Origin: an uncultured Christensenella sp.
GTDB lineage: Bacteria; Bacillota; Clostridia; Christensenellales; DTU072
Reading direction: 5' to 3'
Length of the DNA stretch: 64,000 nt
Assembly: GCA_949285605.1 (NCBI GenBank)
Contig: CASDZI010000005.1
Location: 14,508 to 78,507 of the forward strand
Program-made: the position numbers and the translations under genes
In this document: piece after piece, positions 11,023 to 58,631 of the stretch
Position numbering within the stretch: the first letter of the stretch is position 1
Layout: the number at the start of each line of letters is the position of its first letter
The notes under the pieces: model-generated
Told to the model about the DNA's origin: nothing
Database searches by the model: none
What the model saw: the letters and a program-made list of their open reading frames with translations, nothing else

Positions 11023-12642
11023 ATGTTGAATTTACTTTCTGCTAACGGCGTTGCGCAATACATAATATTCGCTCTTTATCTTGCCGTGTTGATCGTGGTG
11101 GCGCTCTTTACCGCCAAAAAAAGTAAATCCCTGAACGACTTTATGTTCGCAAGCAAAGGAGTGGGCGGGTGGCTCAGCGCATTCGCTTACGGAGCCACTT
11201 ACTTCAGTGCGGTCGTGTTCATAGGTTACGCCGGAAAATTCGGTTGGAATTTCGGACTGGCGGCGGTATGGATAGGGATAGGCAATATGCTCATAGGAAC
11301 GCTTGCCGCCTGGCTGCTCCTCGCTAAACGCACCAAATTCATGACGACCGCCCTCCAGGCTCGCACCATGCCGGAATTTTTCGAAAAACGCTACCGCTCG
11401 GGACACATAAAACTGTTGAGTTCCCTGCTTATATTTATTTTCCTGCTGCCCTATTCTTCCTCGGTCTATCAGGGACTGGGCTATATCTTTTCCAAGGTCA
11501 TCGGGCTCGATACCGTCTGGTGTATCCTCATACTCGCCGTGGTGACCGCAGTCTATCTGTTCCTGGGCGGCTATTTCGCCACCTCCATTACCGATTTTAT
11601 TCAGGGTATCATAATGATAATCGGAATTTTGGTCTGCGTCTTTACTCTGCTTTCCGCCGAAGAAGTCAACTGGGGGGAAGGGCTTTCCGCCCTTATGCAA
11701 AACGGACTGGGGCTTATCCCTTCCGGAGCCGTTCCCGAAGGAAAATCCTTTATGGATTCGGCGGCGTTCAACGTGGTGATACTCGTTCTCCTGACCTCGC
11801 TCGGGATCTGGGGACTTCCGCAGTCGGTACATAAATTTTACGCCGTCAAGGACGACGACGCCATTAAAAAGGGCGCCGTGATAAGTACGGTGTTTGCTCT
11901 GATAGTGGGCGGAGGGGCATACTTTATCGGTAGTTTGGTTACCCTTTTCGTAAGTAAAGAAACTTTCGTCAACGATCTCGGAGGTAATTTCGACAGACTG
12001 GTTCCCGAAATGCTCACCTCCAACCTCACTCCGGCTTTGCTCGGACTGATTTTAGTATTGCTGTTTTCTGCGAGCATGTCCACTCTCGCTTCCCTTTCCC
12101 TTTCCTCCGCCTCCACCGTGAGCGTGGATTTTTATAAAGGGTATATCAAAAAGCAAGCTCCCGAAAGTAACGTGACCATTCTGATGAGGGTGCTGTGCCT
12201 GGTGTTCGTGGCGGTGAGCGCTGTGCTCGCCATAGTCGAAATAGACGCCATAGTCACCATGATGAGTTTGAGCTGGGGACTTCTCGCAGGCTGTTTCATC
12301 GGACCTTACGTCTTAGGGCTTTATTCCAAAAAAATAAACAAGGCGGGCGCTTACGCCTCCATAATAACCACCGTACTCATTACGATAATAATGATAATAA
12401 CTCTCGGACTGCACGACGCTCCGGGCGCCTCTTTCGGGAAAGTTCTGAAAGCCGGTATAGGACGCAGTCCTTTCATAGGCGTGGTCTGTATGGCGGCGTC
12501 CTTTATAGTGACCCCCGTATTCAGCTTGATCTTCAGGTCCTGCACGCCGGATAAGGAATTCCTCGCAACTCTCTTCCCCGAGAAATTCACGGCGTCGACT
12601 ACGCCGAGTCCTTCCTCCGAAGAGACCCCGGCAGAGCAATAA
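11023..12642 (+). CDS. Sodium:solute symporter (SSF) family transporter
   Basis: 539 aa with about 13 hydrophobic helices. The N-terminus has the typical SSF pattern (..SLNDFMFASKGVGGWLSAFAYGATYFSAV..). Confidence 0.8.
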   Translation: MLNLLSANGVAQYIIFALYLAVLIVVALFTAKKSKSLNDFMFASKGVGGWLSAFAYGATYFSAVVFIGYAGKFGWNFGLAAVWIGIGNMLIGTLAAWLLLAKRTKFMTTALQARTMPEFFEKRYRSGHIKLLSSLLIFIFLLPYSSSVYQGLGYIFSKVIGLDTVWCILILAVVTAVYLFLGGYFATSITDFIQGIIMIIGILVCVFTLLSAEEVNWGEGLSALMQNGLGLIPSGAVPEGKSFMDSAAFNVVILVLLTSLGIWGLPQSVHKFYAVKDDDAIKKGAVISTVFALIVGGGAYFIGSLVTLFVSKETFVNDLGGNFDRLVPEMLTSNLTPALLGLILVLLFSASMSTLASLSLSSASTVSVDFYKGYIKKQAPESNVTILMRVLCLVFVAVSAVLAIVEIDAIVTMMSLSWGLLAGCFIGPYVLGLYSKKINKAGAYASIITTVLITIIMIITLGLHDAPGASFGKVLKAGIGRSPFIGVVCMAASFIVTPVFSLIFRSCTPDKEFLATLFPEKFTASTTPSPSSEETPAEQ

Positions 12643-50200: not shown

Positions 50201-50449
50201 ACCTCCTCTGCCCGTTCTCATCAACCCGTACAACTCGGTGACCAGCTTGTTTTTCATTTCCGCCGCCGCCGCTTTGGAAAAGGTCATGACCGCCATTCTC
50301 CTGACGTCTTTTCCCTGCAGGATAAGGTCGATTATCTTGGCTATCATAACGGTGGTCTTGCCGCTACCAGCCGCAGCGCTTATCAGGACGTTACCGTCGG
50401 TTTCCATGACTTTCAACTGGGCGTCGTTCATTTTATTCTTTTCAAGCAT
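47213..50449 (-). CDS. addA: Helicase-nuclease AddA (UvrD-type SF1A helicase with a C-terminal PD-(D/E)xK nuclease)
   Basis: Walker A AAAGSGKTT. ..FIDEYQDTN... C-terminal ..GVADLV...VADYKAS.. nuclease motif. Confidence 0.9.
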   Translation of the reverse strand: MLEKNKMNDAQLKVMETDGNVLISAAAGSGKTTVMIAKIIDLILQGKDVRRMAVMTFSKAAAAEMKNKLVTELYGLMRTGRGGSHVREQLEAFPFANISTIDSFCFGLVKKYFASAGIDPSVKVMDPEESAVMFSECMDAACEKKLSSGDKAFASLAERYTTARRLDDLKKNIGLLRDFLSVQPDKEKFLQEDFSAQTDRYVFDRFLKYTRKILRKGRSLLPLFTVFPMEEEQAETEKLLASLENVLRSDGAGSLLRRAGFLSEPKPCRRIKGVSLEVKSRYNLFRSEVKDYLAECVYFADLYDKRGKALNEDVKQLADVTLLTVRLYDERKKREGKIDFSDMGSMAKKVLSDDTVRREVASSFDYIFIDEYQDTNYLQESLINAFSNGENVFAVGDVKQAIYHFRYAEPEIFLQRMRLYETEGNNIPLNENYRSRKEILDFVNAVCAEVMTEEFCSVDYRGENMMKAGAQYGEEGEAVEIFLYDKEEREETRLTSVYSVKEAEAEEETDPESIFVAKTIKEKVERRTPVYRPAEKSFSPLRYEDVAVLAATGKGCRKIAAALAAEGIPYSVADPPEGIFAPRELLVDFVRLCVSCSDVTVLNTLMSPVFGFSNAELLEIRLKSPEVSLWEAVKSYNGDENLQKKTQEFIAYAEELRKRSAYTPVSVLMTQVLADGLDAYFLSLGKEVSGRVYRFLQNVASVEGGHGVEDFLTYYDSSYKGEKQPAGADSVTVMTMHKSKGLEFPWVVLPFVDTASVGEKGFSAALYADRELGIALRSSETESGVTEDNYYTAAQKMKKREEERKELARLMYVAFTRAKNRLIIVGKRKKVCTDVDEAVSIEDFVTYASSLDPTLKSCFVETVFPENSTEKATERPRAAQAEFAYLEESYPFGESTVLPNKASVSELLEEEEGTAGFFRYGKTEAATGTAYHLLLQKINFSALGEKEVQKELSRLVSEGELTNEQAAAIDCGAVAEVMASDFIRGLVGKLHREIPFVYYLPAANGDMTLIQGVADLVAEEDDGLTVADYKASNAPPEELKKRYAKQLEIYSSAMEKIFGKPVKRRILFNILRNYVVEV

Positions 50450-53400
50450 CGCCTCTCTCCCCCTTCAGCGCCGCCGCAAAATCTTCCTTCTCGACGGGAC
50501 CTTGTTCCCTGGAGGGTATATCTCCGCAAATCCGTCGGTAATCGCAATAAGCGCATTCCCCTTTGAGCGGTTTCTTTTCGGCATAGCCGGAAAGTATCTC
50601 CTCCAACGCCTTTGCCGCAAGTTTTTCCACATATCGGGAAATGTCGGCAAAATCGTTTGCGTCGAGCAGATTTTTACTGCGGTTGAGCTTTATGTCGCCC
50701 TCTTTTACCACGGCTTTGAACGCCACTGCCGGAGACGCATAACTTCCCTCCGCTTGCCTGACCCTGTTGTCCAGCGCCGCATAAAGTTCGGGATCGTTCA
50801 CCATCTGTCCCACGCAAGCGTAAGATCTCCCTCCCTTCCTGTTGCCGCTCCTCACGGGCAGATAAAATACTCCCTTCACCTCTTCTCCGTTTTTCAGATA
50901 ATACAAAGTGTAAACGTAAAGCTGGATCTTACGCCCGTCGAAAACGTCGGAAAGCGACGCTTTGACCGACCCCGTCTTGTAATCGATAATTATCCTCTCG
51001 TTTTTCCTGCCGTCCACTCTGTCGATACGTCCGCGTAATTTGAAAATACGGTCTTTTACGGTTATGAGTATCTCGTTTTCGTTGTTTCGGTACCCAAATC
51101 CTACTTCAAATCCTATCGGACGGAATTCCGACGCACGCATGGATTCCGCCAGCGCCGGGAAAAGATATTTACATTCGGTTTTTATACCGTTCAGAATATA
51201 TGCGTTAAACGGGTCGTCGGACAAGCCGGCGTATTCCTCTTTGGCGAGTTCCTCGTCCACCGTCTTTGCCACCAAAGGCAGAATGTCCTTTCCGTCGTAA
51301 ACGCTCTTCAGATAGCGGCGGAAAAAGGTATTGAGGATATTGTGGATTATGTTCCCCGTTACCGAGGGCAGCAGTCCGTCCTCGTCGGGTCTGACGTTGA
51401 GTCCTCTTTTCAGGAAATGGCGGAAGGGACAGGAAAAATAAGTTTCCAGCTGGCTTACCGAAGTCACCTTTCTGCCCCGTTCGTCCTCCGCAAAGCAATT
51501 TTCGAAAACGAAAGCGGCGTCGGGGGGGAGCTTTTGTTTCAGCAGCCCTTTCTTCGACAAATATTTCCCTACCGCCTCGAGATATTCGGGCGGAACTCTT
51601 CCCGAAACGTATTCCCTATAAGCGTTCTGCGGATTTACCAAGCGGTAAAGCAACCGTTCCTCGTCGGAAAAATTACGGTACTTTTCCAGAGGGAGCGGTT
51701 CCGTTCCCGTAATGAAACGCAGTTCCTTGAACCCTTCTCCTTCGGTCTGCACGTCGCCGGAAAGGTCGGTAAAGGCGCAACCGACGTAAAGTCTGTCGGC
51801 AGGACGGGTGACGGTCTCCGCCGTAACGAACTTTTCCAGACGGTTCTTTTCCGCAGGCGTAGGAAACACGGGTAAATCTATACGCTTCATATTCTCGTTG
51901 TCGGCGGCGGTGAAAATGATCCCGTCGCCGTTTTTTATCGGGAAATATCCGTCCGCAGCCCCCGTCACGAACAGGACTTTAATTCCGTTGAACCGACTTT
52001 CCTCGGTATTCCCCACGAATACCGAATCGTAATAATCGGGTCTCAGTACGGTTTTCATATCCGCCAACGCCGTCTTGAGCAAAAGCGAAAACTTTTCGGC
52101 GTCGACCGTCTCGTCTCCGTCTATCTCGGCAATTTCCGCCAGCAACGCGGTAAATTTATCGATACGGGCGGAAGCTATCAAGCGTTCCTCTGCGCTTTCG
52201 GCGTATTCGGTAAGTTTGTCCGAGACAAACTCTTCCAGCAGGAGCCTCTCCGCCGCCAGGCAAAACTCCGATATTTTCCCTTCGGAGGGAAATTTCTCCG
52301 TTTCCCGCAGCAAGCGCTCCCGTACCTTTTCCGCTTCTTCGCAGTCGCCGTAACGGAAGGGTTCGGCAAACCGCCGTCCTTTGATATTGTATTTTTTGCA
52401 ATAATTTTCAAAAACGCCGCATTCTTCCCGGCTCAGTTGCAAAAACGGATGATGCGCCAGACGGAACACGTCGTTCTGCGACAGTCCTTTCGCCTCGCAC
52501 AAAAGCGTGACGTAACGGACGGCTACGCCCTCGGATACGGGATACCCGGTATCTATAAAACAAGGGATCTTGCAGAGGGAAAAGATTTCTTCGGCAAAAG
52601 GCAGATAGGCTTTATCGTTGCAAACCACCGCTATATCCTTGTAACGGTAATTTTCCCGTCGGACCAGATATACTATTTCCCGAGCGACGGCTTCCAGTTC
52701 CTCGTAAGGCGTTTCTTCCCTGAAAAGCCTGACTGCGCCCCCGAGAAGATCGGGCGAAACGGGCTTTGCTGCGTCGGAAAACATTCGGTTCCTGATCTCT
52801 CCGAAGGGTTCTTTGAGAAGAGAAAACGCCTCTTCCTTTTCCACGGGTATTCCGTTTTCCTCGCAAAAAGCCGCCAGCTCGTCGGTCTGCGAGGTAAGTC
52901 CTCCGTACAGAAATGGGGTATAAGGCAAGGTAAGGCTCGCCCCTTTGAGCAGGCAGGCTCGCAGGACCTCCAGTTGAAGAGCGGAATAGACGTTAAAGCC
53001 CAACACATAAAAATGTGTGTCCGAAAAATCCCCTTCTTTCCTGATATACTCCGCCAACGAAGTCAGTCTGGTCACGGTATCGGAGTAGCCCGAGGACAGT
53101 TCTTTTTCGTATTCGGCGGAAATAACCGCTACGTCGGAAAGTTTGTCTTTCAGCACGCCGTCGGCAAGCTCCGCCTTTTCGGAGATTTTTTCGGGCGTAA
53201 GCAAGGCACTCCGCAACGACGCCGTGGCGGCAAAAAGTTCCTTTGCGAAATTGTATCCCGATAAACTTTTGTAATAACGCAGTTTATCGGCGTTTTTTCG
53301 CATAACTTTGTCCAAAAGGACGACGGTGCCTTCCTTGGAAAGGCATTTTTTAATTTTCTTCCCCACGGTTTTTACCGCAAAACGGGTAAAACTGACCACG

Positions 53401-53582
53401 TCGGCACGGGTATAGCCGTCGTGGAAATAATTTTCGCAGATGTCCCTCTCCACCCCGAGCGTGAACCTGTCCGGCACGATAAAAACGTGCTTTACGTCGG
53501 GGGCGTCGTTTTTTCTCAAACGGGCGTAAACCCTTCGGAACCCCTCTTCGGAAGTGTTGGTTTCAATTAAAAAAAGCCGCAT
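50442..53582 (-). CDS. addB: Helicase-nuclease AddB (inactive helicase-like subunit with an Fe-S nuclease domain)
   Basis: 8-nt overlap with addA. C-terminal ..IIDYKTG.. nuclease motif. Fe-S cysteines (CPFRHF.. and CAYCDYRRIC). Confidence 0.85.
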   Translation of the reverse strand: MRLFLIETNTSEEGFRRVYARLRKNDAPDVKHVFIVPDRFTLGVERDICENYFHDGYTRADVVSFTRFAVKTVGKKIKKCLSKEGTVVLLDKVMRKNADKLRYYKSLSGYNFAKELFAATASLRSALLTPEKISEKAELADGVLKDKLSDVAVISAEYEKELSSGYSDTVTRLTSLAEYIRKEGDFSDTHFYVLGFNVYSALQLEVLRACLLKGASLTLPYTPFLYGGLTSQTDELAAFCEENGIPVEKEEAFSLLKEPFGEIRNRMFSDAAKPVSPDLLGGAVRLFREETPYEELEAVAREIVYLVRRENYRYKDIAVVCNDKAYLPFAEEIFSLCKIPCFIDTGYPVSEGVAVRYVTLLCEAKGLSQNDVFRLAHHPFLQLSREECGVFENYCKKYNIKGRRFAEPFRYGDCEEAEKVRERLLRETEKFPSEGKISEFCLAAERLLLEEFVSDKLTEYAESAEERLIASARIDKFTALLAEIAEIDGDETVDAEKFSLLLKTALADMKTVLRPDYYDSVFVGNTEESRFNGIKVLFVTGAADGYFPIKNGDGIIFTAADNENMKRIDLPVFPTPAEKNRLEKFVTAETVTRPADRLYVGCAFTDLSGDVQTEGEGFKELRFITGTEPLPLEKYRNFSDEERLLYRLVNPQNAYREYVSGRVPPEYLEAVGKYLSKKGLLKQKLPPDAAFVFENCFAEDERGRKVTSVSQLETYFSCPFRHFLKRGLNVRPDEDGLLPSVTGNIIHNILNTFFRRYLKSVYDGKDILPLVAKTVDEELAKEEYAGLSDDPFNAYILNGIKTECKYLFPALAESMRASEFRPIGFEVGFGYRNNENEILITVKDRIFKLRGRIDRVDGRKNERIIIDYKTGSVKASLSDVFDGRKIQLYVYTLYYLKNGEEVKGVFYLPVRSGNRKGGRSYACVGQMVNDPELYAALDNRVRQAEGSYASPAVAFKAVVKEGDIKLNRSKNLLDANDFADISRYVEKLAAKALEEILSGYAEKKPLKGECAYCDYRRICGDIPSREQGPVEKEDFAAALKGERGDA

Positions 53583-53641
53583 ATCATAATAATAGCAGAC
53601 TTTCTTTCAAATTACAAGGCAAATGCCTCTTTCTAACGCAA

Positions 53642-53661
53642 GGGGGCGTTCCCACGCCCCC
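53642..53661 (-). terminator. GC-rich hairpin after the Cys-rich ORF
   Basis: GGGGGCG / CGCCCCC stem with a 6-nt loop. The U-tract on the minus strand is weak (TTGCGTT). Confidence 0.45.
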
Positions 53662-53673
53662 GTCCGACGGCGG

Positions 53674-53865
53674 TCAGTTGCAGCTGCCGACGTTTTTATT
53701 GCCGCAGCAACCGCAGCAACAAAGGATAAGTAACAATGGCAGTATATCGCAAATGCAGGAATTGGCGTTGCCACAGCAGCAAAGTATAAGTAACAACCAG
53801 AGCATGTTTCCGCAACCGGAGCAACCGCAGGAGCCGTTACCCATAAATCCCTCGTAACAGTTCAT
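53674..53865 (-). CDS. Tiny hydrophobic, extremely Cys-rich protein (63 aa, 15 Cys)
   Basis: RBS AAGGAGG 7 nt upstream of the ATG. There is an internal duplication LLLILCCCG (aa 24-32 and 44-52). Confidence 0.65.
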   Translation of the reverse strand: MNCYEGFMGNGSCGCSGCGNMLWLLLILCCCGNANSCICDILPLLLILCCCGCCGNKNVGSCN

Positions 53866-53913
53866 AATGAAGACCTCCTTTCAGATTTTGTATTTTACCT
53901 ACAATACATCAGT

Positions 53914-55419
53914 ATGCCGAGGGTTTTCAATGTGTGTTTAATCCCTTTTCTTTTGGGAATATTCTTTATTATGAAAAAGGATTTTTATACCGAAGCGTGT
54001 ACCTTGAACGAGGAATTTTACGGGACGTCGGATTTGATAGCCCGTACGGTAAAGGCCGGTAAATCGGAGGGAAAACTGTTTTTTCTGGACGCAATGAGCG
54101 ACGGAAAGCAACTCGAACTGTCCGTTATCGCTCCTCTCAATCAATATAAGGGGGAGCCTATAGCCGACGCCGAAACTCTCGCAGGAGTAATAAATGCAGG
54201 TTGCGGAATCAAGGAAACGCCGGACAAAGACGAAGCGGTAAGTGCGGTCTCCGCAGGAGACGCCGCCCTTGTTTTGGAAGGAAGCGGCAAGTTCTTTCTC
54301 CTCGGGGTAAGAAAAGGTATTTCCCGCGCCGTCAGCGAACCGCCTACCGGCACGGTGGTAAAGGGTCCCCGTGAAGGTTTCGTGGAGGATATAAAAACCA
54401 ATATGGTGCTTTTACGCCGCAGGATAAGGAGCAATAAACTGGTTTTCAAATCCGTGACCGAAGGGCGTTTTACCGAAACTACCGTCATGATCTGTTACGT
54501 GGAAGGAATAGTCAAACAGGGGATCCTGGAAAAAATAACCGAACGTCTGAACGCCGTCGACAGCGAGGGCTTTCTGGACAGTTCCGCCGTCACAAAAATT
54601 CTGGAAGCTCGTCCGTATTCCGTTTTCAAACAGCTCGGCAATACCGAAAAACCCGACGTCGCCGCATCAAAGCTGTTAGACGGAAGGGTGGTGATACTGG
54701 TGGACGGTTCCCCCATAGCGATAACCGCCCCCTTCCTGCTCATAGAGGACTTCGAAGACGTCCAAGATCAATATAAACGCTCCGTAAGAGTGACCTTCTT
54801 ACGGCTTATGCGGGCGATTGCGGTGATTTTTGCGGTGATTTTGCCGGGTATCTACGTTGCCATACAAGTTCATCAGTACCAGATACTCCCCTTACAGCTT
54901 CTGATAACCTTGTTGAATTCCACCGAAGGGATCCCCTTCTCTCCCACGCTGGAAATGCTTATCGCCTTGCTTTTATTCGAAATACTGAGCGAAGCGAGTA
55001 TCCGTATGCCCCGTCATATAGGTATGGCGCTCGGAGTGGTGGGCGCTATAGTCCTCGGAGACACGGCGGTGCAGGCGGGGCTTTTGTCCAGTCTGACCGT
55101 GCTTACGGTGGCTATGAGCGGAATAGGTATTTACGCCGTCCCCGACGAAGTGGGCGTCTTAAGCGTGCTGCGAATGTGCCTCGTGGTGGTGGGAGGACTT
55201 TTCGGAATGTTCGGACTGCTCGCCGCAATAATAATAATTCTGGTCTATCTGTCCTGTATGGAAACCTTCGACGTGCCGTATCTTGCCCCGTTCGCCCCCA
55301 TAGAAAACGAAAAACTACGTGAAACGCTCCTCATTCCCAATTTTACCGATAAAAAATTCCGCACGCCTTCCATGCAGCTTAAAAACAAACGCAGAATAAT
55401 CAATAAATTGCCGAGGTAA
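53914..55419 (+). CDS. Spore germination protein, GerA (KA/GerAA) family
   Basis: Soluble N-domain followed by C-terminal TM helices, matching the family pattern. The start is ambiguous between 53914 and 53971 (MKKDFY..). Confidence 0.85.
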   Translation: MPRVFNVCLIPFLLGIFFIMKKDFYTEACTLNEEFYGTSDLIARTVKAGKSEGKLFFLDAMSDGKQLELSVIAPLNQYKGEPIADAETLAGVINAGCGIKETPDKDEAVSAVSAGDAALVLEGSGKFFLLGVRKGISRAVSEPPTGTVVKGPREGFVEDIKTNMVLLRRRIRSNKLVFKSVTEGRFTETTVMICYVEGIVKQGILEKITERLNAVDSEGFLDSSAVTKILEARPYSVFKQLGNTEKPDVAASKLLDGRVVILVDGSPIAITAPFLLIEDFEDVQDQYKRSVRVTFLRLMRAIAVIFAVILPGIYVAIQVHQYQILPLQLLITLLNSTEGIPFSPTLEMLIALLLFEILSEASIRMPRHIGMALGVVGAIVLGDTAVQAGLLSSLTVLTVAMSGIGIYAVPDEVGVLSVLRMCLVVVGGLFGMFGLLAAIIIILVYLSCMETFDVPYLAPFAPIENEKLRETLLIPNFTDKKFRTPSMQLKNKRRIINKLPR

Positions 55420-55423
55420 ACCT

Positions 55424-56491
55424 ATGAATTATCTGACCAAGACCCAACTTGCCATAATAGTTTTTTTCGTGCCGCTCGTGTTCAAAATGGCAATGCTCCC
55501 TTCCTTACTTTACGAAGCCTGCGGTCCCGACAGCTATATAGGGATAGCGATGATAACGGCGGTGGAGTTCTTACAGATGGGGCTGGTGCTGTTCGTCGTA
55601 TCCAAAGGCGGCATGGAAGGTATAGCCGCCCTTTACGGAAAAAATCTTCAGCGGCTCCTCGCCGCTCCCCTGATCTTCGTAATGATAATAAAAAGTCTGG
55701 TTTTCATTACCGAAATCCAGACCTACGTTTGCGATTATCTTTTCTATAACATTTCGCCTTTTCCCATCATCTGCGCAATAATGGTGGTGATATTCTATCT
55801 TGCTCTGAAGGGAGCCAAGACTATAGGCAGAATTTTCGAATTGTCGATATGGTTCATTCCCCTTATAGTGCTTTTCGGGATACTCTTCGGGAAAGCCCGA
55901 CTGCAACCGGAATACCTCGGACCGCTGTTTGCCGACGGACCGGGCGAGCTGTTCGGCGGACTCAATAAATATATAATGTACACCTTCGACTTCTCCCCTC
56001 TGCTGTTTTTTAAGATAGAAAAAGGTAAAAACGCCCGTATAGTGATCGCTTCGGTGCTTGCCGTCATAGCGGTATGCAGTTGTTATATGATACTGATAGC
56101 AAGTTACGGCAGGGCGACTTTCCTCGTCAACGACGCTTTCGCCCGTCTGGCGTCCTTCAATACCGTGGTAAGCGAAATAGGCTCCCTCGACTGGCCCAGC
56201 GCAATGCTGTGGCTGACCACGTCTATCTGCAACGTAGCGCTGAAATTCGCCGCCATGGCGGAAATACTGAAATACTTTAACGTCAAAAAAGCTTTCGGAG
56301 CAGGATCGTTGTGCGTAGTGGTCGGAGGGCTGTTGATTTTTCTTTTCCGAGGTTTCAAAGAAGCCCTGCGCCTTACCGTTCACCCGATAAGATTTATCGT
56401 TATAGGCATCGAAATCGCCGTACCTATCATTCTTTTAATACTTTATGCGGCAAAAAACCGCAAAGGAGTGACCGTTGAAACGCCCGCTTAA
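55424..56491 (+). CDS. Spore germination protein, GerAB-type (APC-superfamily-like permease)
   Basis: 355 aa with about 10 TM helices, positioned between the GerAA-like and GerAC-like genes. Confidence 0.8.
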   Translation: MNYLTKTQLAIIVFFVPLVFKMAMLPSLLYEACGPDSYIGIAMITAVEFLQMGLVLFVVSKGGMEGIAALYGKNLQRLLAAPLIFVMIIKSLVFITEIQTYVCDYLFYNISPFPIICAIMVVIFYLALKGAKTIGRIFELSIWFIPLIVLFGILFGKARLQPEYLGPLFADGPGELFGGLNKYIMYTFDFSPLLFFKIEKGKNARIVIASVLAVIAVCSCYMILIASYGRATFLVNDAFARLASFNTVVSEIGSLDWPSAMLWLTTSICNVALKFAAMAEILKYFNVKKAFGAGSLCVVVGGLLIFLFRGFKEALRLTVHPIRFIVIGIEIAVPIILLILYAAKNRKGVTVETPA

Positions 56492-57614
56492 ATGGATAAT
56501 TACCCTTATCGGAATAGTAGCTTTCCTTTCCTTCGGAGGACTGCTGCCGGGAGAACCTTTGGTTGACAGAGCCATGGTGGTAGGTTTCGGCGTGGACCTT
56601 ACGGAAGAAGGCGAACTCAACGTTTCCGCCCAGATTCTGAACCCGTCTCCCGCCGCTCAGCAACAGGGTATCGGGGCAAAAGTGGTTACCGCCCGACACG
56701 AAACCATTTCGGGCGCAATGACTTATATCAGCGAAAAATCCGGAAAAACCGTAGCTCTTACCCACTGTAACGTGGTGTTGATAGGAGAAAGCGTGGCTAA
56801 AAGTCGGTATTTTTACTCGGTCTTGAACTACCTCATCACCAATTCCTATCTCAGCGAAAACGCCTTCGTGTTCGTGACCGACGGAAAGGCCGAGGAACTG
56901 TTGAAATCAAACACGGGTTTCGGCGGCAATGCCTCCTTTTACGTTCAGAGGCTGGTGGGAATGTACGGAGACTACAACAACGTCTCCAACAAAACTCTGC
57001 AACGCTTCGTGGTGGATTATCATAAGTTAGGACAAGCCAACTGGCTTCCCCTCATCAAAACCGAACCCACAAACCCCGACGTTTCGGCTGGCGGCGACCA
57101 GTCCTCTTCGGAAGAACAGATCCTTTTCGACATAAATTCCGTCGTTATATTCAAAGAAAACGATTTTATCGCCGAGTACGGGCAAAACGGAACGGAAGCC
57201 ATAAATTACGTTATGAACAAAGTTTCGAAAGGCAACGTGGAGACCGAGGGCGACAACGGGGAAAAAATACTCCTTTATATCATTGAAAAGAAGCAAAAAT
57301 ACCATTACGATCTGGACAACGCAACGGTCAAGGTAAAAATCGAAATAAGCACTCTTCTGAAAGAAATTATAGATTATTCCGGCGAGGACGAATATATCGA
57401 CCGCACCGGACTGACCGAAACGGAATTAAAAAAAGCGGGAAAGGACATCGCCGACAACATCCTTGCCTTTTACGCCGAAATGCAATCTTACGGCGTGGAC
57501 ATCTTCTCGTTTTACGAAGGATTCTATTCCAAATTCGGGAACAAAGCTCTGAATATGGACATAAAAGACATAACTCTGGACGTGGAAGTGGAAGTCAAAG
57601 CGAACGACGTTTGA
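56475..57614 (+). CDS. Spore germination protein, Ger(x)C family
   Basis: TTG start after AAAGGAG. ..RAMVVGFGVDL.. and the C-terminal region fit the family, but there is no Cys in the N-terminal signal region. Confidence 0.75.
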   Translation: MKRPLKWIITLIGIVAFLSFGGLLPGEPLVDRAMVVGFGVDLTEEGELNVSAQILNPSPAAQQQGIGAKVVTARHETISGAMTYISEKSGKTVALTHCNVVLIGESVAKSRYFYSVLNYLITNSYLSENAFVFVTDGKAEELLKSNTGFGGNASFYVQRLVGMYGDYNNVSNKTLQRFVVDYHKLGQANWLPLIKTEPTNPDVSAGGDQSSSEEQILFDINSVVIFKENDFIAEYGQNGTEAINYVMNKVSKGNVETEGDNGEKILLYIIEKKQKYHYDLDNATVKVKIEISTLLKEIIDYSGEDEYIDRTGLTETELKKAGKDIADNILAFYAEMQSYGVDIFSFYEGFYSKFGNKALNMDIKDITLDVEVEVKANDV

Positions 57615-57695: not shown

Positions 57696-58631
57696 ATGGA
57701 TATCGTCATTCCCAAAGGGATAAAGATCGGTCACTGGCAGGACGAATACACGGGAGTAACCGTTATTCTGTCCGAAAAAGGCGTCGTAGCCGGCGCCGAC
57801 GTGAGAGGCGGCGCCCCCGGAACAAGAGAAACCGACCTTCTGCGTCCGGAGAAAGCCGTACAGAAAATAAACGCCGTAGTTTTGAGCGGCGGTTCGGCAT
57901 ACGGTCTGTCCTCCTGCGACGGGGTCATGCGTTATCTGAGAGAAAAAGGCTGCGGACACAAAATGGGAAATAAAGTCGTTCCTATCGTAAGCGGAGCAGT
58001 TATTTACGACTTGAACGACAAGGACTACCACATTCCCGATTCCGAAAGCGGATACAAAGCCTGTCTTAACGCTTCGGAAAATCCCCTCTTCGGACAAGTC
58101 GGCGTAGGCAAAGGCGCCACCGTCGGGAAAATACGGGGGGTGAAAAATTCCTGTAAGAGCGGACTCGGCGCTTACACCGTCAAAGTTGCGGGCGTTACCG
58201 TCACGGCGGTGATCTGCGTCAACGCTTTAGGCGACGTCGTCGATAAAGACGGAAAAATCATTGCCGGAGCCAAAGGAAAGGACGGAAAATTCATAAATAC
58301 CTTGGACTGCCTTCTCAACAACCGTTTCGGCACGCTTTTGTTCGGAAACACCACCATAGGCTGTATCCTTACCAATGCGAAATTAGACAAACTTCAAGCC
58401 AACAAAATCGCTTCCGTCGCCCACAACGGACTGGCGAAAAGCATTTCTCCCGTGCATACCGATTACGACGGAGACACCCTTTTCTGTATGGCTACGGGAA
58501 AGGTGCCGGTGCTTAACCTCGTGCTTTTACAGACCGCCGTCGTCGAAGCCGTGGAAAACGCCGTCCGTGCCGCAGTCAGAAGCGGAGAAAACTATACCGT
58601 TATCTGCGAGGAAGAGGAAATTTCGGAATGA
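57696..58631 (+). CDS. P1/S58 family peptidase (DmpA/BapA-like aminopeptidase)
   Basis: ..GVTVIL...AGADVRGGAPGTRETDLL.. and the ..GNTTIGCILTNAKL.. autoprocessing-site region. Confidence 0.8.
   Translation: MDIVIPKGIKIGHWQDEYTGVTVILSEKGVVAGADVRGGAPGTRETDLLRPEKAVQKINAVVLSGGSAYGLSSCDGVMRYLREKGCGHKMGNKVVPIVSGAVIYDLNDKDYHIPDSESGYKACLNASENPLFGQVGVGKGATVGKIRGVKNSCKSGLGAYTVKVAGVTVTAVICVNALGDVVDKDGKIIAGAKGKDGKFINTLDCLLNNRFGTLLFGNTTIGCILTNAKLDKLQANKIASVAHNGLAKSISPVHTDYDGDTLFCMATGKVPVLNLVLLQTAVVEAVENAVRAAVRSGENYTVICEEEEISE

Follow-up and report, generated by a model that had tools for sequence, protein, structure and literature searches.

A small cysteine-rich hydrophobic protein family of Clostridia with a conserved sigma-K-type promoter motif: a candidate spore-envelope component

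The locus

The minus strand of a 64-kilobase (kb) stretch of DNA from an uncultured Christensenella sp. (contig CASDZI010000005.1; the whole stretch is called the window here) carries a 63-codon open reading frame (ORF) at 53674..53865. It has an ATG start and encodes a hydrophobic protein with 15 Cys (23.8%), 10 Gly, 8 Asn and three charged residues (E5, D40 and K57). An earlier reading of this DNA, made from its letters alone (the sequence-only reading), had described the same ORF, and we recover the identical product with its Cys content and its three charges. A scan of the window for Cys-richness shows that no other ORF is strongly Cys-rich; the runner-up has 12% Cys and is 25 amino acids (aa) long. 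Because it is the sole strongly Cys-rich ORF of the window and has conserved homologues, this ORF is not a chance frame. The gene and the features that belong to it are:

53674..53865 (-): coding sequence, with its stop codon, for the hydrophobic Cys-rich protein MNCYEGF...GSCN (ORF list, homologues, purifying selection)
53874..53880 (-): Shine-Dalgarno (SD) sequence AAGGAGG, 8 nucleotides (nt) 5' of the ATG (sequence and conservation)
53907..53916 (-): candidate promoter -10 element CATACTGATG (CATA..., mother-cell sigma type), 51 nt 5' of the ATG (ATG-anchored upstream alignment, motif counts)
53932..53937 (-): candidate promoter -35 region ACACAC, sigma-K type, whose AC at 53935-53934 lies 17 nt upstream of CATA (motif counts)
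53642..53661 (-): GC-rich stem-loop GGGGGCGU GGGA ACGCCCCC with an 8-bp stem, 13 nt past the stop codon, a probable terminator (fold)
53771..53796 (-): DNA of the first hydrophobic unit (LLLILCCCG, residues 24-32), direct repeat family D2
53711..53736 (-): DNA of the second hydrophobic unit (LLLILCCCG, residues 44-52), direct repeat family D2

A large family in Clostridia

The window protein has relatives across Clostridia. A single-sequence search found four close relatives, and phmmer against 1.84 billion representative proteins returned 10 matches. A profile built from the phmmer matches reached 51 clusters, and a broader profile reached at least 342 clusters at E<=0.001, a lower bound since 8000 candidates were scored. 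The sequence-only reading had suggested a search of related genomes for small ORFs with an LLLILCCCG-like pattern, and the profile searches found this family. The family spans about 47-100 aa; most members have 47-87 aa, and a few calls run longer, to about 140 aa. All taxon-labelled members (most carry no label) are from Clostridia: uncultured Clostridia, Christensenellales and “Catabacter” metagenome-assembled genomes (MAGs), Lachnospiraceae, Clostridium sp. and Epulopiscium-like MAGs. The Lachnospiraceae isolate Brotonthovivens ammoniilytica carries one member (WP_158424001.1, locus L018).

The ORF is conserved as a protein. Loci were retrieved with a narrower alignment (A2) that covered the branch of the family carrying CDILPLLLIL. 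This peptide is identical in 17 loci, although its Leu, Ile, Pro and Asp codons vary freely in a codon-level comparison. In the first unit, LW[LI][LI]L[IL]LCCC, the peptide is likewise kept while synonymous codons vary, and indels among homologues preserve the reading frame. Because CDILPLLLIL stays constant across 17 loci despite free synonymous change, we conclude that the ORF is protein-coding. On the opposing explanation there is no gene, and the frame arose by chance or as a side effect of a structured, GC-rich RNA. The 192-nt stretch does fold slightly better than shuffled sequences (z = -2.3) and contains GCAGC/GCTGC repeats, but repeated GCAGC/GCTGC codons would themselves produce such a mild excess of mRNA folding. 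The identical peptide core with free synonymous variation refutes this explanation, and the in-frame indels and the conserved SD and start codon also speak against it. Rfam holds no credible match for the locus, its single hit being far below the gathering score. We therefore give a non-coding origin a negligible chance. The sequence-only reading had taken the frame for a real small-protein gene and had named, among the ways in which this could fail, a lack of conservation and origin from a structured RNA; the codon-level conservation and the Rfam result bear the gene out on both.

Existing family models do not capture these proteins. The window protein matched no NCBIfam or Pfam model at E<=10. 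Among 31 diverse members, no NCBIfam model matched at E<=1, and Pfam gave just three unrelated single-member hits (E>0.1). Sequence searches of the PDB with the window protein and the 31 members found nothing, and megablast of the locus against plasmids gave no match. The family is undescribed, sizeable and misannotated, and ORF 53674..53865 is a bona fide member of it.

Members are publicly named either “hypothetical” or “chorion class high-cysteine HCB protein 13”. The second label is found on MBO4540019.1, MDR2634851.1, NLK38359.1, MCM1134007.1 and UniRef100_A0ABT2TG31, and on bacterial members it is evidently a composition-driven artefact of automated annotation that propagates through databases. 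A literature search with the annotation name and with sequence strings found no bacterial study, the chorion term being met for Bombyx mori only. The silkmoth protein and the window family share Cys-Gly-rich arms (GCGCGC-like) and a hydrophobic core, whereas they are unrelated in organism, in size and in the architecture of their repeats. Hardening of the eggshell by chorion Hc proteins works through disulfide bonds, an analogous protective-shell chemistry.

Repeated architecture

Each family protein consists of two copies of one unit: a Gly/Cys/Asn-rich spacer, then a purely apolar run of 8-12 residues that is usually Trp-led ([LI]W[LI][LI]LLL), then CC(C)G, which is invariant after each unit. 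The family falls into two branches. The branch of the window reads MNFFDG(F), a G/C/N-rich arm, LWLLL(I)LCCCGN, a short linker, C(I)CDILPLLLILxCC, GNK... and a C-rich tail. The Lachnospiraceae/Clostridium/Epulopiscium branch reads MSDLAATNCGC, an arm, IIWIILLLSCCGG, a G/N-rich linker, IIWIILLLCCCGNG and a tail. The layout of this second branch shows that the protein arose when a single unit was duplicated in tandem. In the branch of the window, the Trp of unit 2 is replaced by Pro, so that the unit is now CDILPLLLILxCC.

The duplication is ancient at the protein level. In the window protein, LLLILCCCG occurs twice with a spacing of 20 residues, and the underlying direct repeat D2 has 26 nt per copy, 88% identity and 60 nt spacing. 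Near-identical codon choice in the two copies is confined to the window lineage; relatives use different Leu codons in each segment, so the duplication is not recently copied DNA. The DNA repeat is thus a lineage-specific feature on top of an ancient protein repeat. The peptide pair and the DNA repeat reported by the sequence-only reading both stand, although the likeness of the DNA copies is a matter of this lineage and not of recent copying.

The composition of the family is extreme. Across 119 members, median length is 71 aa and median content is 17.5% Cys (12-26% in the family), 20% Gly and 12% Asn. The longest apolar run has a median of 11 and a maximum of 12 residues. Lys and Arg are both absent from 44/119 members and together number two or fewer in 107/119. 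The apolar segments are not of the kind found in ordinary bitopic or hairpin membrane proteins, which have 19-23 residues and basic flanks.

The apolar runs of the window protein are 11 and 8 residues long. AlphaFold2, with the family alignment as input, gives two short helices only (19-31 and 42-51; 13 and 10 residues) in a model of low confidence (predicted local distance difference test score, pLDDT, 57). The summed Hessa scale is unfavourable in every 19-residue window of the protein. A lipoprotein or signal peptide was considered and rejected, as the protein has neither a basic N-region nor a lipobox (Leu precedes Cys).

These properties could also suit a small membrane-embedded or metal- or redox-active peptide with no structural role: a Zn, Cu or Fe-S binder, a redox buffer, or a perturber of membranes during mother-cell lysis. 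Cys makes up 24% of the protein and forms vicinal CC/CCC and CxC motifs of a metallothionein-like kind. The two low-confidence AlphaFold2 helices are hydrophobic, the 19-residue Kyte-Doolittle window exceeds 1.6, and the late mother-cell timing suggested by the promoter motif described below would suit a role in lysis. However, metallothioneins are not hydrophobic, and defined metal sites typically show CxxC or His patterns that this protein lacks. Nor does it resemble holins or typical pore formers, since the apolar runs reach 12 residues at most and there is no charged tail. There are no conserved metal-homeostasis neighbours, only locus L027 lying near a P-type ATPase gene. We regard a role of this kind as improbable.

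Promoter and transcription unit

A promoter-like element is conserved upstream of the family. All related loci have GGAGGT followed by ACATA..ATG. At 40-60 nt upstream of the ATG lies a two-block element, (A/T)AACAC or GTCAC, then 15-17 nt, then C(A/G)TA-N3-T. The pattern AC-N15-17-C[AG]TA is present at the same distance in 21/22 distinct loci, from Christensenellales-like MAGs through Lachnospiraceae, a count that overstates the number of independent observations since the loci are phylogenetically related. Shuffled upstream regions contain it in a mean of 1.05/18 (maximum 5); among real regions that precede long ORFs of these loci, 9/191 (4.7%) have it. Sigma-G and sigma-F patterns are present in 0/22 family upstream regions, and a sigma-E-type ATA -35 in 1/22, at the wrong position. 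Sigma-E and sigma-K share a CATA -10 and differ by ATA versus AC at -35, in both C. difficile (PMC3789822) and B. subtilis (PMC517825). The AC at -35 together with the CATA -10 therefore makes the element one of the sigma-K type. The sequence-only reading had proposed scanning the intergenic region on the side of gerAA, the neighbouring gene, for sporulation-sigma promoters, and it is there that this conserved element lies.

Another candidate, GCATA-N13-GGTAAAATA as a sigma-F/G promoter of the window gene, was rejected; it is unconserved in relatives and would put the transcription start on the SD. One other gene of the window has AC-N15-17-CATA followed by an SD and a start codon: 11023-12642 (+), encoding a 539-aa membrane-transporter-like protein. 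This match is probably due to chance.

A strong hairpin stands directly 3' of the stop codon in 20/22 related loci, and in the window the stem-loop was missed by a terminator scan because it has no U-run. The strong SD and the GC hairpin behind the gene, both pointed out by the sequence-only reading, are thus real features of the locus. With its sigma-K-type promoter motif, strong SD, tiny ORF and terminator, and with flanking genes that vary from clade to clade, the gene appears to be a self-contained monocistronic unit.

This design recalls YjcZ, as had been proposed from the sequence. YjcZ proteins (family model presumably TIGR01732) are tiny; their head is Gly-rich, and their hydrophobic stretch is single, long and uninterrupted. 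Like them, the window protein is very small and passes from a Gly-rich head through an extremely hydrophobic stretch to a short tail. Both genes are monocistronic, and B. subtilis yjcZ is listed in the sigma-K regulon (PMC517825), while the window family has a sigma-K-type promoter motif. The comparison therefore holds for design and for probable regulation. It does not extend to membership, which was judged on the profile side by hidden Markov model (HMM) scans only and rejected, as there was no HMM match (none among the 31 members in NCBIfam, the library that would hold the YjcZ model) and the architecture differs. Where YjcZ has a single long stretch, the window family has two apolar units of 8-12 residues, both of which end in CC(C)G; its high Cys content with invariant CC(C)G is a further difference, and it occurs in Clostridia, not in Bacilli. 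A YjcZ-like query gave no tblastn match in the plasmid collection.

Linkage to a germinant-receptor operon

On the other strand, the gene is flanked by a gerA-type operon, outside the unit described above:

53971..57614 (+): divergent gerAA (probable start 53971; longest ORF from 53914), gerAB 55424..56491 and gerAC 56475..57614 (ORFs, orthologues)

Orthologues of these genes in loci L001-L005 and L013-L016 carry the Pfam domains GerA, Spore_permease and Spore_GerAC. The gap to gerAA is 48 nt from the longest ORF start (53914) and 105 nt from the start supported by relatives (53971). Relatives align to gerAA from Met20 of the longest ORF onward and share a conserved GGGAAT-N-ATG; the gerAA start is probably 53971 (MKKDFY...) and not 53914. 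The divergent layout and the gap of 48-105 nt are as the sequence-only reading gave them, and its placement of the gene in a sporulation context is supported.

The linkage is real and is confined to one clade. Divergent pairing with gerA is found in the sub-branch of the window (window, L001/2, L003/4, L005 and L013-L016), where the outer flanks vary. In the window, L005 and L001/2, addB-addA lies downstream of the small gene and an S58 peptidase gene past gerAC; in L003/4, tuf lies beyond gerAC; in L013-L016, addB lies beyond gerAC and tuf-fusA beyond the small gene. As the outer flanks differ while gerA stays, the linkage is to gerA and not to addB. Elsewhere in the family, within 4-6 kb on both flanks, there is no gerA in L007, L009, L011, L012 and L017 (tblastn) or in L018, L020, L022 and L024-L027 (gene calls). 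L006, L008 and L010 have no gerA nearby either, with one flank ended by the contig end. Breakpoints in the shared intergenic region of ~100 nt would damage both promoters, so adjacency can persist without functional coupling. The tie to the germination operon implied by the sequence-only reading is thus a true adjacency in the window that carries less weight than it appears to.

No canonical sigma-G or sigma-F promoter is present within 300 nt upstream of gerAA in the window and six relatives. The gerA strand carries a conserved block, TATGCCG...TTTCAA(AA)TGTGTG(AG)TTTAxA, that overlaps the -10/-35 of the small gene on the other strand (window 53866-53971; L001, L003, L013-L016).

Adjacency of this kind raises the possibility that the protein is an accessory “D-subunit” of the germinant receptor (GerUD, GerKD, YfkS type), located in the spore inner membrane and tuning or chaperoning the receptor. 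D-subunits are small proteins with two transmembrane (TM) domains of about 19-23 residues and a loop between them; they are encoded in or next to receptor operons, modulate germination and are described as expressed in the forespore only (PMC4661057). Their function withstands drastic changes in sequence, and versions that are reversed or have just one TM segment still work (PMC4661057), so missing sequence similarity is not decisive. The window protein is comparably small (63 aa versus 74-76 aa), has two hydrophobic segments with a loop between them and is encoded beside a gerA-type operon, from which it diverges at 105 nt, a pairing kept within its clade though the flanks (addB, tuf, S58 peptidase) differ. 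A GerAA tblastn search found a GerUD-like gene with the same divergent layout on the Priestia megaterium plasmid NZ_CP048884.1 (L023 3506-3730 (-); 74 aa, MKIIGISLLMMGCLMGFSLGI...FVLFFLLFLFFAESAYLFIKKRNQSK), 133 nt from gerUA.

Other evidence speaks against this role. The apolar runs are at most 12 residues, about half the length of D-subunit TM segments. Those segments have basic ends, while basic flanks are mostly absent from the window family, which has almost no basic residues. Its conserved promoter motif is of the mother-cell sigma-K type, with none of the sigma-G/F patterns expected of forespore expression. Germinant receptors sit in the spore inner membrane, a site out of reach for a product of the mother cell. 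Moreover, most of the family lies away from any gerA operon (L006-L012, L017, L018, L020, L022 and L024-L027), and the short shared intergenic region alone could make the adjacency persist where it exists. The family profile A3 aligned to the GerUD-like protein with hhalign gives a probability of 0.1%. We consider the window protein not a convincing D-subunit; such a role is doubtful, and less likely than a role in the spore envelope. The GerUD-like gene is itself annotated as a hypothetical protein and matched no Pfam or NCBIfam model; germinant-receptor D-subunits are without a family model in these libraries.

A coat component made by the mother cell could instead affect germination specifically, for example through germinant access. 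GerP proteins are sigma-K-dependent coat proteins of Bacillus that control germinant access through the outer layers. A GerP-like role would explain the adjacency to gerA, which survives rearrangements in the clade of the window, and would fit the sigma-K-type promoter motif, gerPA being among the sigma-K regulon genes of B. subtilis (PMC517825). It sits poorly with the absence of gerA linkage from most of the family, and the lack of any Pfam match includes the GerP families. We think it unlikely that the protein acts in this way.

Conserved neighbours in Lachnospiraceae

Two conserved genes always come after the Cys-rich gene in the Lachnospiraceae/Clostridium branch, one encoding about 110-200 aa and the other about 90-100 aa, although the outer flanks vary:

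L018 6633-6974 and 7034-7306; L024 4540-5122; L025 4566-5184; L026 4355-5234; L027 4356-5126: the two conserved downstream genes

None of the Pfam and NCBIfam models matched these genes above threshold, the best being DUF5717_N at E=5.6e-5. The window contains no homologue of either gene, and its relatives are without them too. In three loci of this branch, a conserved Lys/Glu-rich ORF of 48-53 aa lies on the opposite strand between the two downstream genes.

A small Cys-rich peptide followed by conserved genes might be the precursor of a ribosomally synthesized and post-translationally modified peptide (RiPP), such as a Cys-derived thioether or thiazole product, with the conserved N-terminal stretch (MNFFDGF or MSDLAATNCGC) as its leader. 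Yet no radical S-adenosylmethionine, lanthipeptide, cyclodehydratase, protease or export genes adjoin it in any context examined. The two Lachnospiraceae neighbours have no enzyme-family match and are missing from the window and its relatives, and the hydrophobic core is more conserved than any leader. This makes a RiPP precursor very improbable.

A candidate component of the spore envelope

We propose that the protein is a late, mother-cell-made, self-associating and disulfide-crosslinkable component of the spore envelope, and we put the probability of this reading at roughly 45%. The late mother-cell programme of sporulation most likely includes this family, and the promoter type favours a component of the outer layers. 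We infer mother-cell expression, a location in the spore envelope and disulfide crosslinking, with self-association and crosslinking suggested by the late mother-cell-type promoter motif, the strong SD, the Cys-Gly arms and the precedent of Cys-rich self-assembling outer-layer proteins in C. difficile.

CdeC and CdeM of C. difficile and CotY/CotZ of Bacillus are made by the mother cell, belong to the outermost spore layers, self-assemble and are thought to be disulfide-crosslinked. They are roughly 160-400 aa long and are not dominated by Leu/Ile runs. The window family is Cys-rich like them and would share their mother-cell origin if its promoter motif is a guide, whereas it is far smaller and has Leu/Ile runs. 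Family profile searches turned up no sequence relation to CdeC, CdeM or CotY/CotZ. Self-assembly of C. difficile CdeC is the subject of a preprint (bioRxiv 10.1101/2020.07.09.196287).

In the proposed mechanism, the protein would be made abundantly in the mother cell, late in sporulation. Being made outside the forespore, it could therefore reach only the outer forespore membrane or the coat or exosporium side. The apolar runs, too short to span a bilayer and without basic flanks, would drive self-association or shallow insertion in a hydrophobic layer. This would bring the Cys triplets at the run ends and the Cys-Gly-rich arms side by side. After loss of the reducing mother-cell cytoplasm, intermolecular disulfides would lock a hydrophobic, crosslinked envelope layer.

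A synthetic system offers a lead on this mechanism. In the original peptide-amphiphile design (Hartgerink et al. 2001), a Cys block reportedly served for oxidative crosslinking. When a designed peptide, LLLLLLCCCGGDS, is fused to a fibronectin domain, the product forms fibres by self-assembly (PMC4581317). The unit of this peptide is almost the same as LWLLLILCCCGN, with an apolar tail, three Cys and Gly; unlike the window family it is engineered and not natural, and the resemblance is a lead and not evidence. Extended to the whole family, the idea would be that of a natural “peptide amphiphile”. In the late mother cell of strict anaerobes, its tandem apolar-run-CCCG units would assemble to give a hydrophobic sheet or fibre layer on the spore, reduced and plastic in the cell and polymerising through the Cys triplets on release into an oxidising environment, and in the Christensenellales-like clade it would be genetically coupled to the germinant receptor. 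This fuller picture is speculative, and we hold it unlikely as a whole.

Several observations weigh against the envelope reading. The use of sigma-K is read from a motif whose high count comes from related loci, and sigma-E, though less probable, might be used instead. Locus L022 has a perfect -10 element, CATAGGATA, but no AC at the right spacing. The 19-residue Kyte-Doolittle window peaks at 2.3 in the window protein, so membrane insertion may be possible, and the AlphaFold2 helices come from the low-confidence model noted above. The adjacency to gerA, kept through three outer-flank arrangements, could reflect a functional tie to germination that an envelope model does not explain. Finally, the gerA operon, where present, only suggests that the source organisms sporulate.

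Spore envelopes of gut Clostridia are poorly understood, with few Bacillus coat proteins conserved there, and annotation routinely overlooks or misnames proteins of very small size. The family defined here comprises at least 342 clusters of small proteins with an extreme composition; it has no Pfam or NCBIfam model and carries a conserved late-sporulation-type promoter motif. That motif offers a sigma-K-type reference site for uncultured Clostridia. If the protein is an envelope component, it would be a candidate determinant of spore hydrophobicity, oxygen tolerance and the transmission of anaerobic commensals, and a marker of sporulation capacity in lineages usually called non-sporulating. 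If the peptide-amphiphile idea is true, it would point to an oxygen-triggered hardening and waterproofing layer specific to anaerobic gut spore formers.

Other features of the region

A Peptidase_S58 (DmpA-like aminopeptidase) gene at 57696-58631 (+) lies directly 3' of gerAC on the same strand. It is also found in L001/L002 and L005 (69-92% identity) and is absent from L003 and L013-L016. It may be a co-transcribed partner of the germinant-receptor operon.

On the minus strand, a sigma-70-like promoter, TTGAAA-16-TATGAT (10/12 matches; 53583-53610), stops one base 5' of the ATG listed for the addB-like gene (50442..53582). This means either a leaderless addB mRNA or a wrongly assigned addB start.

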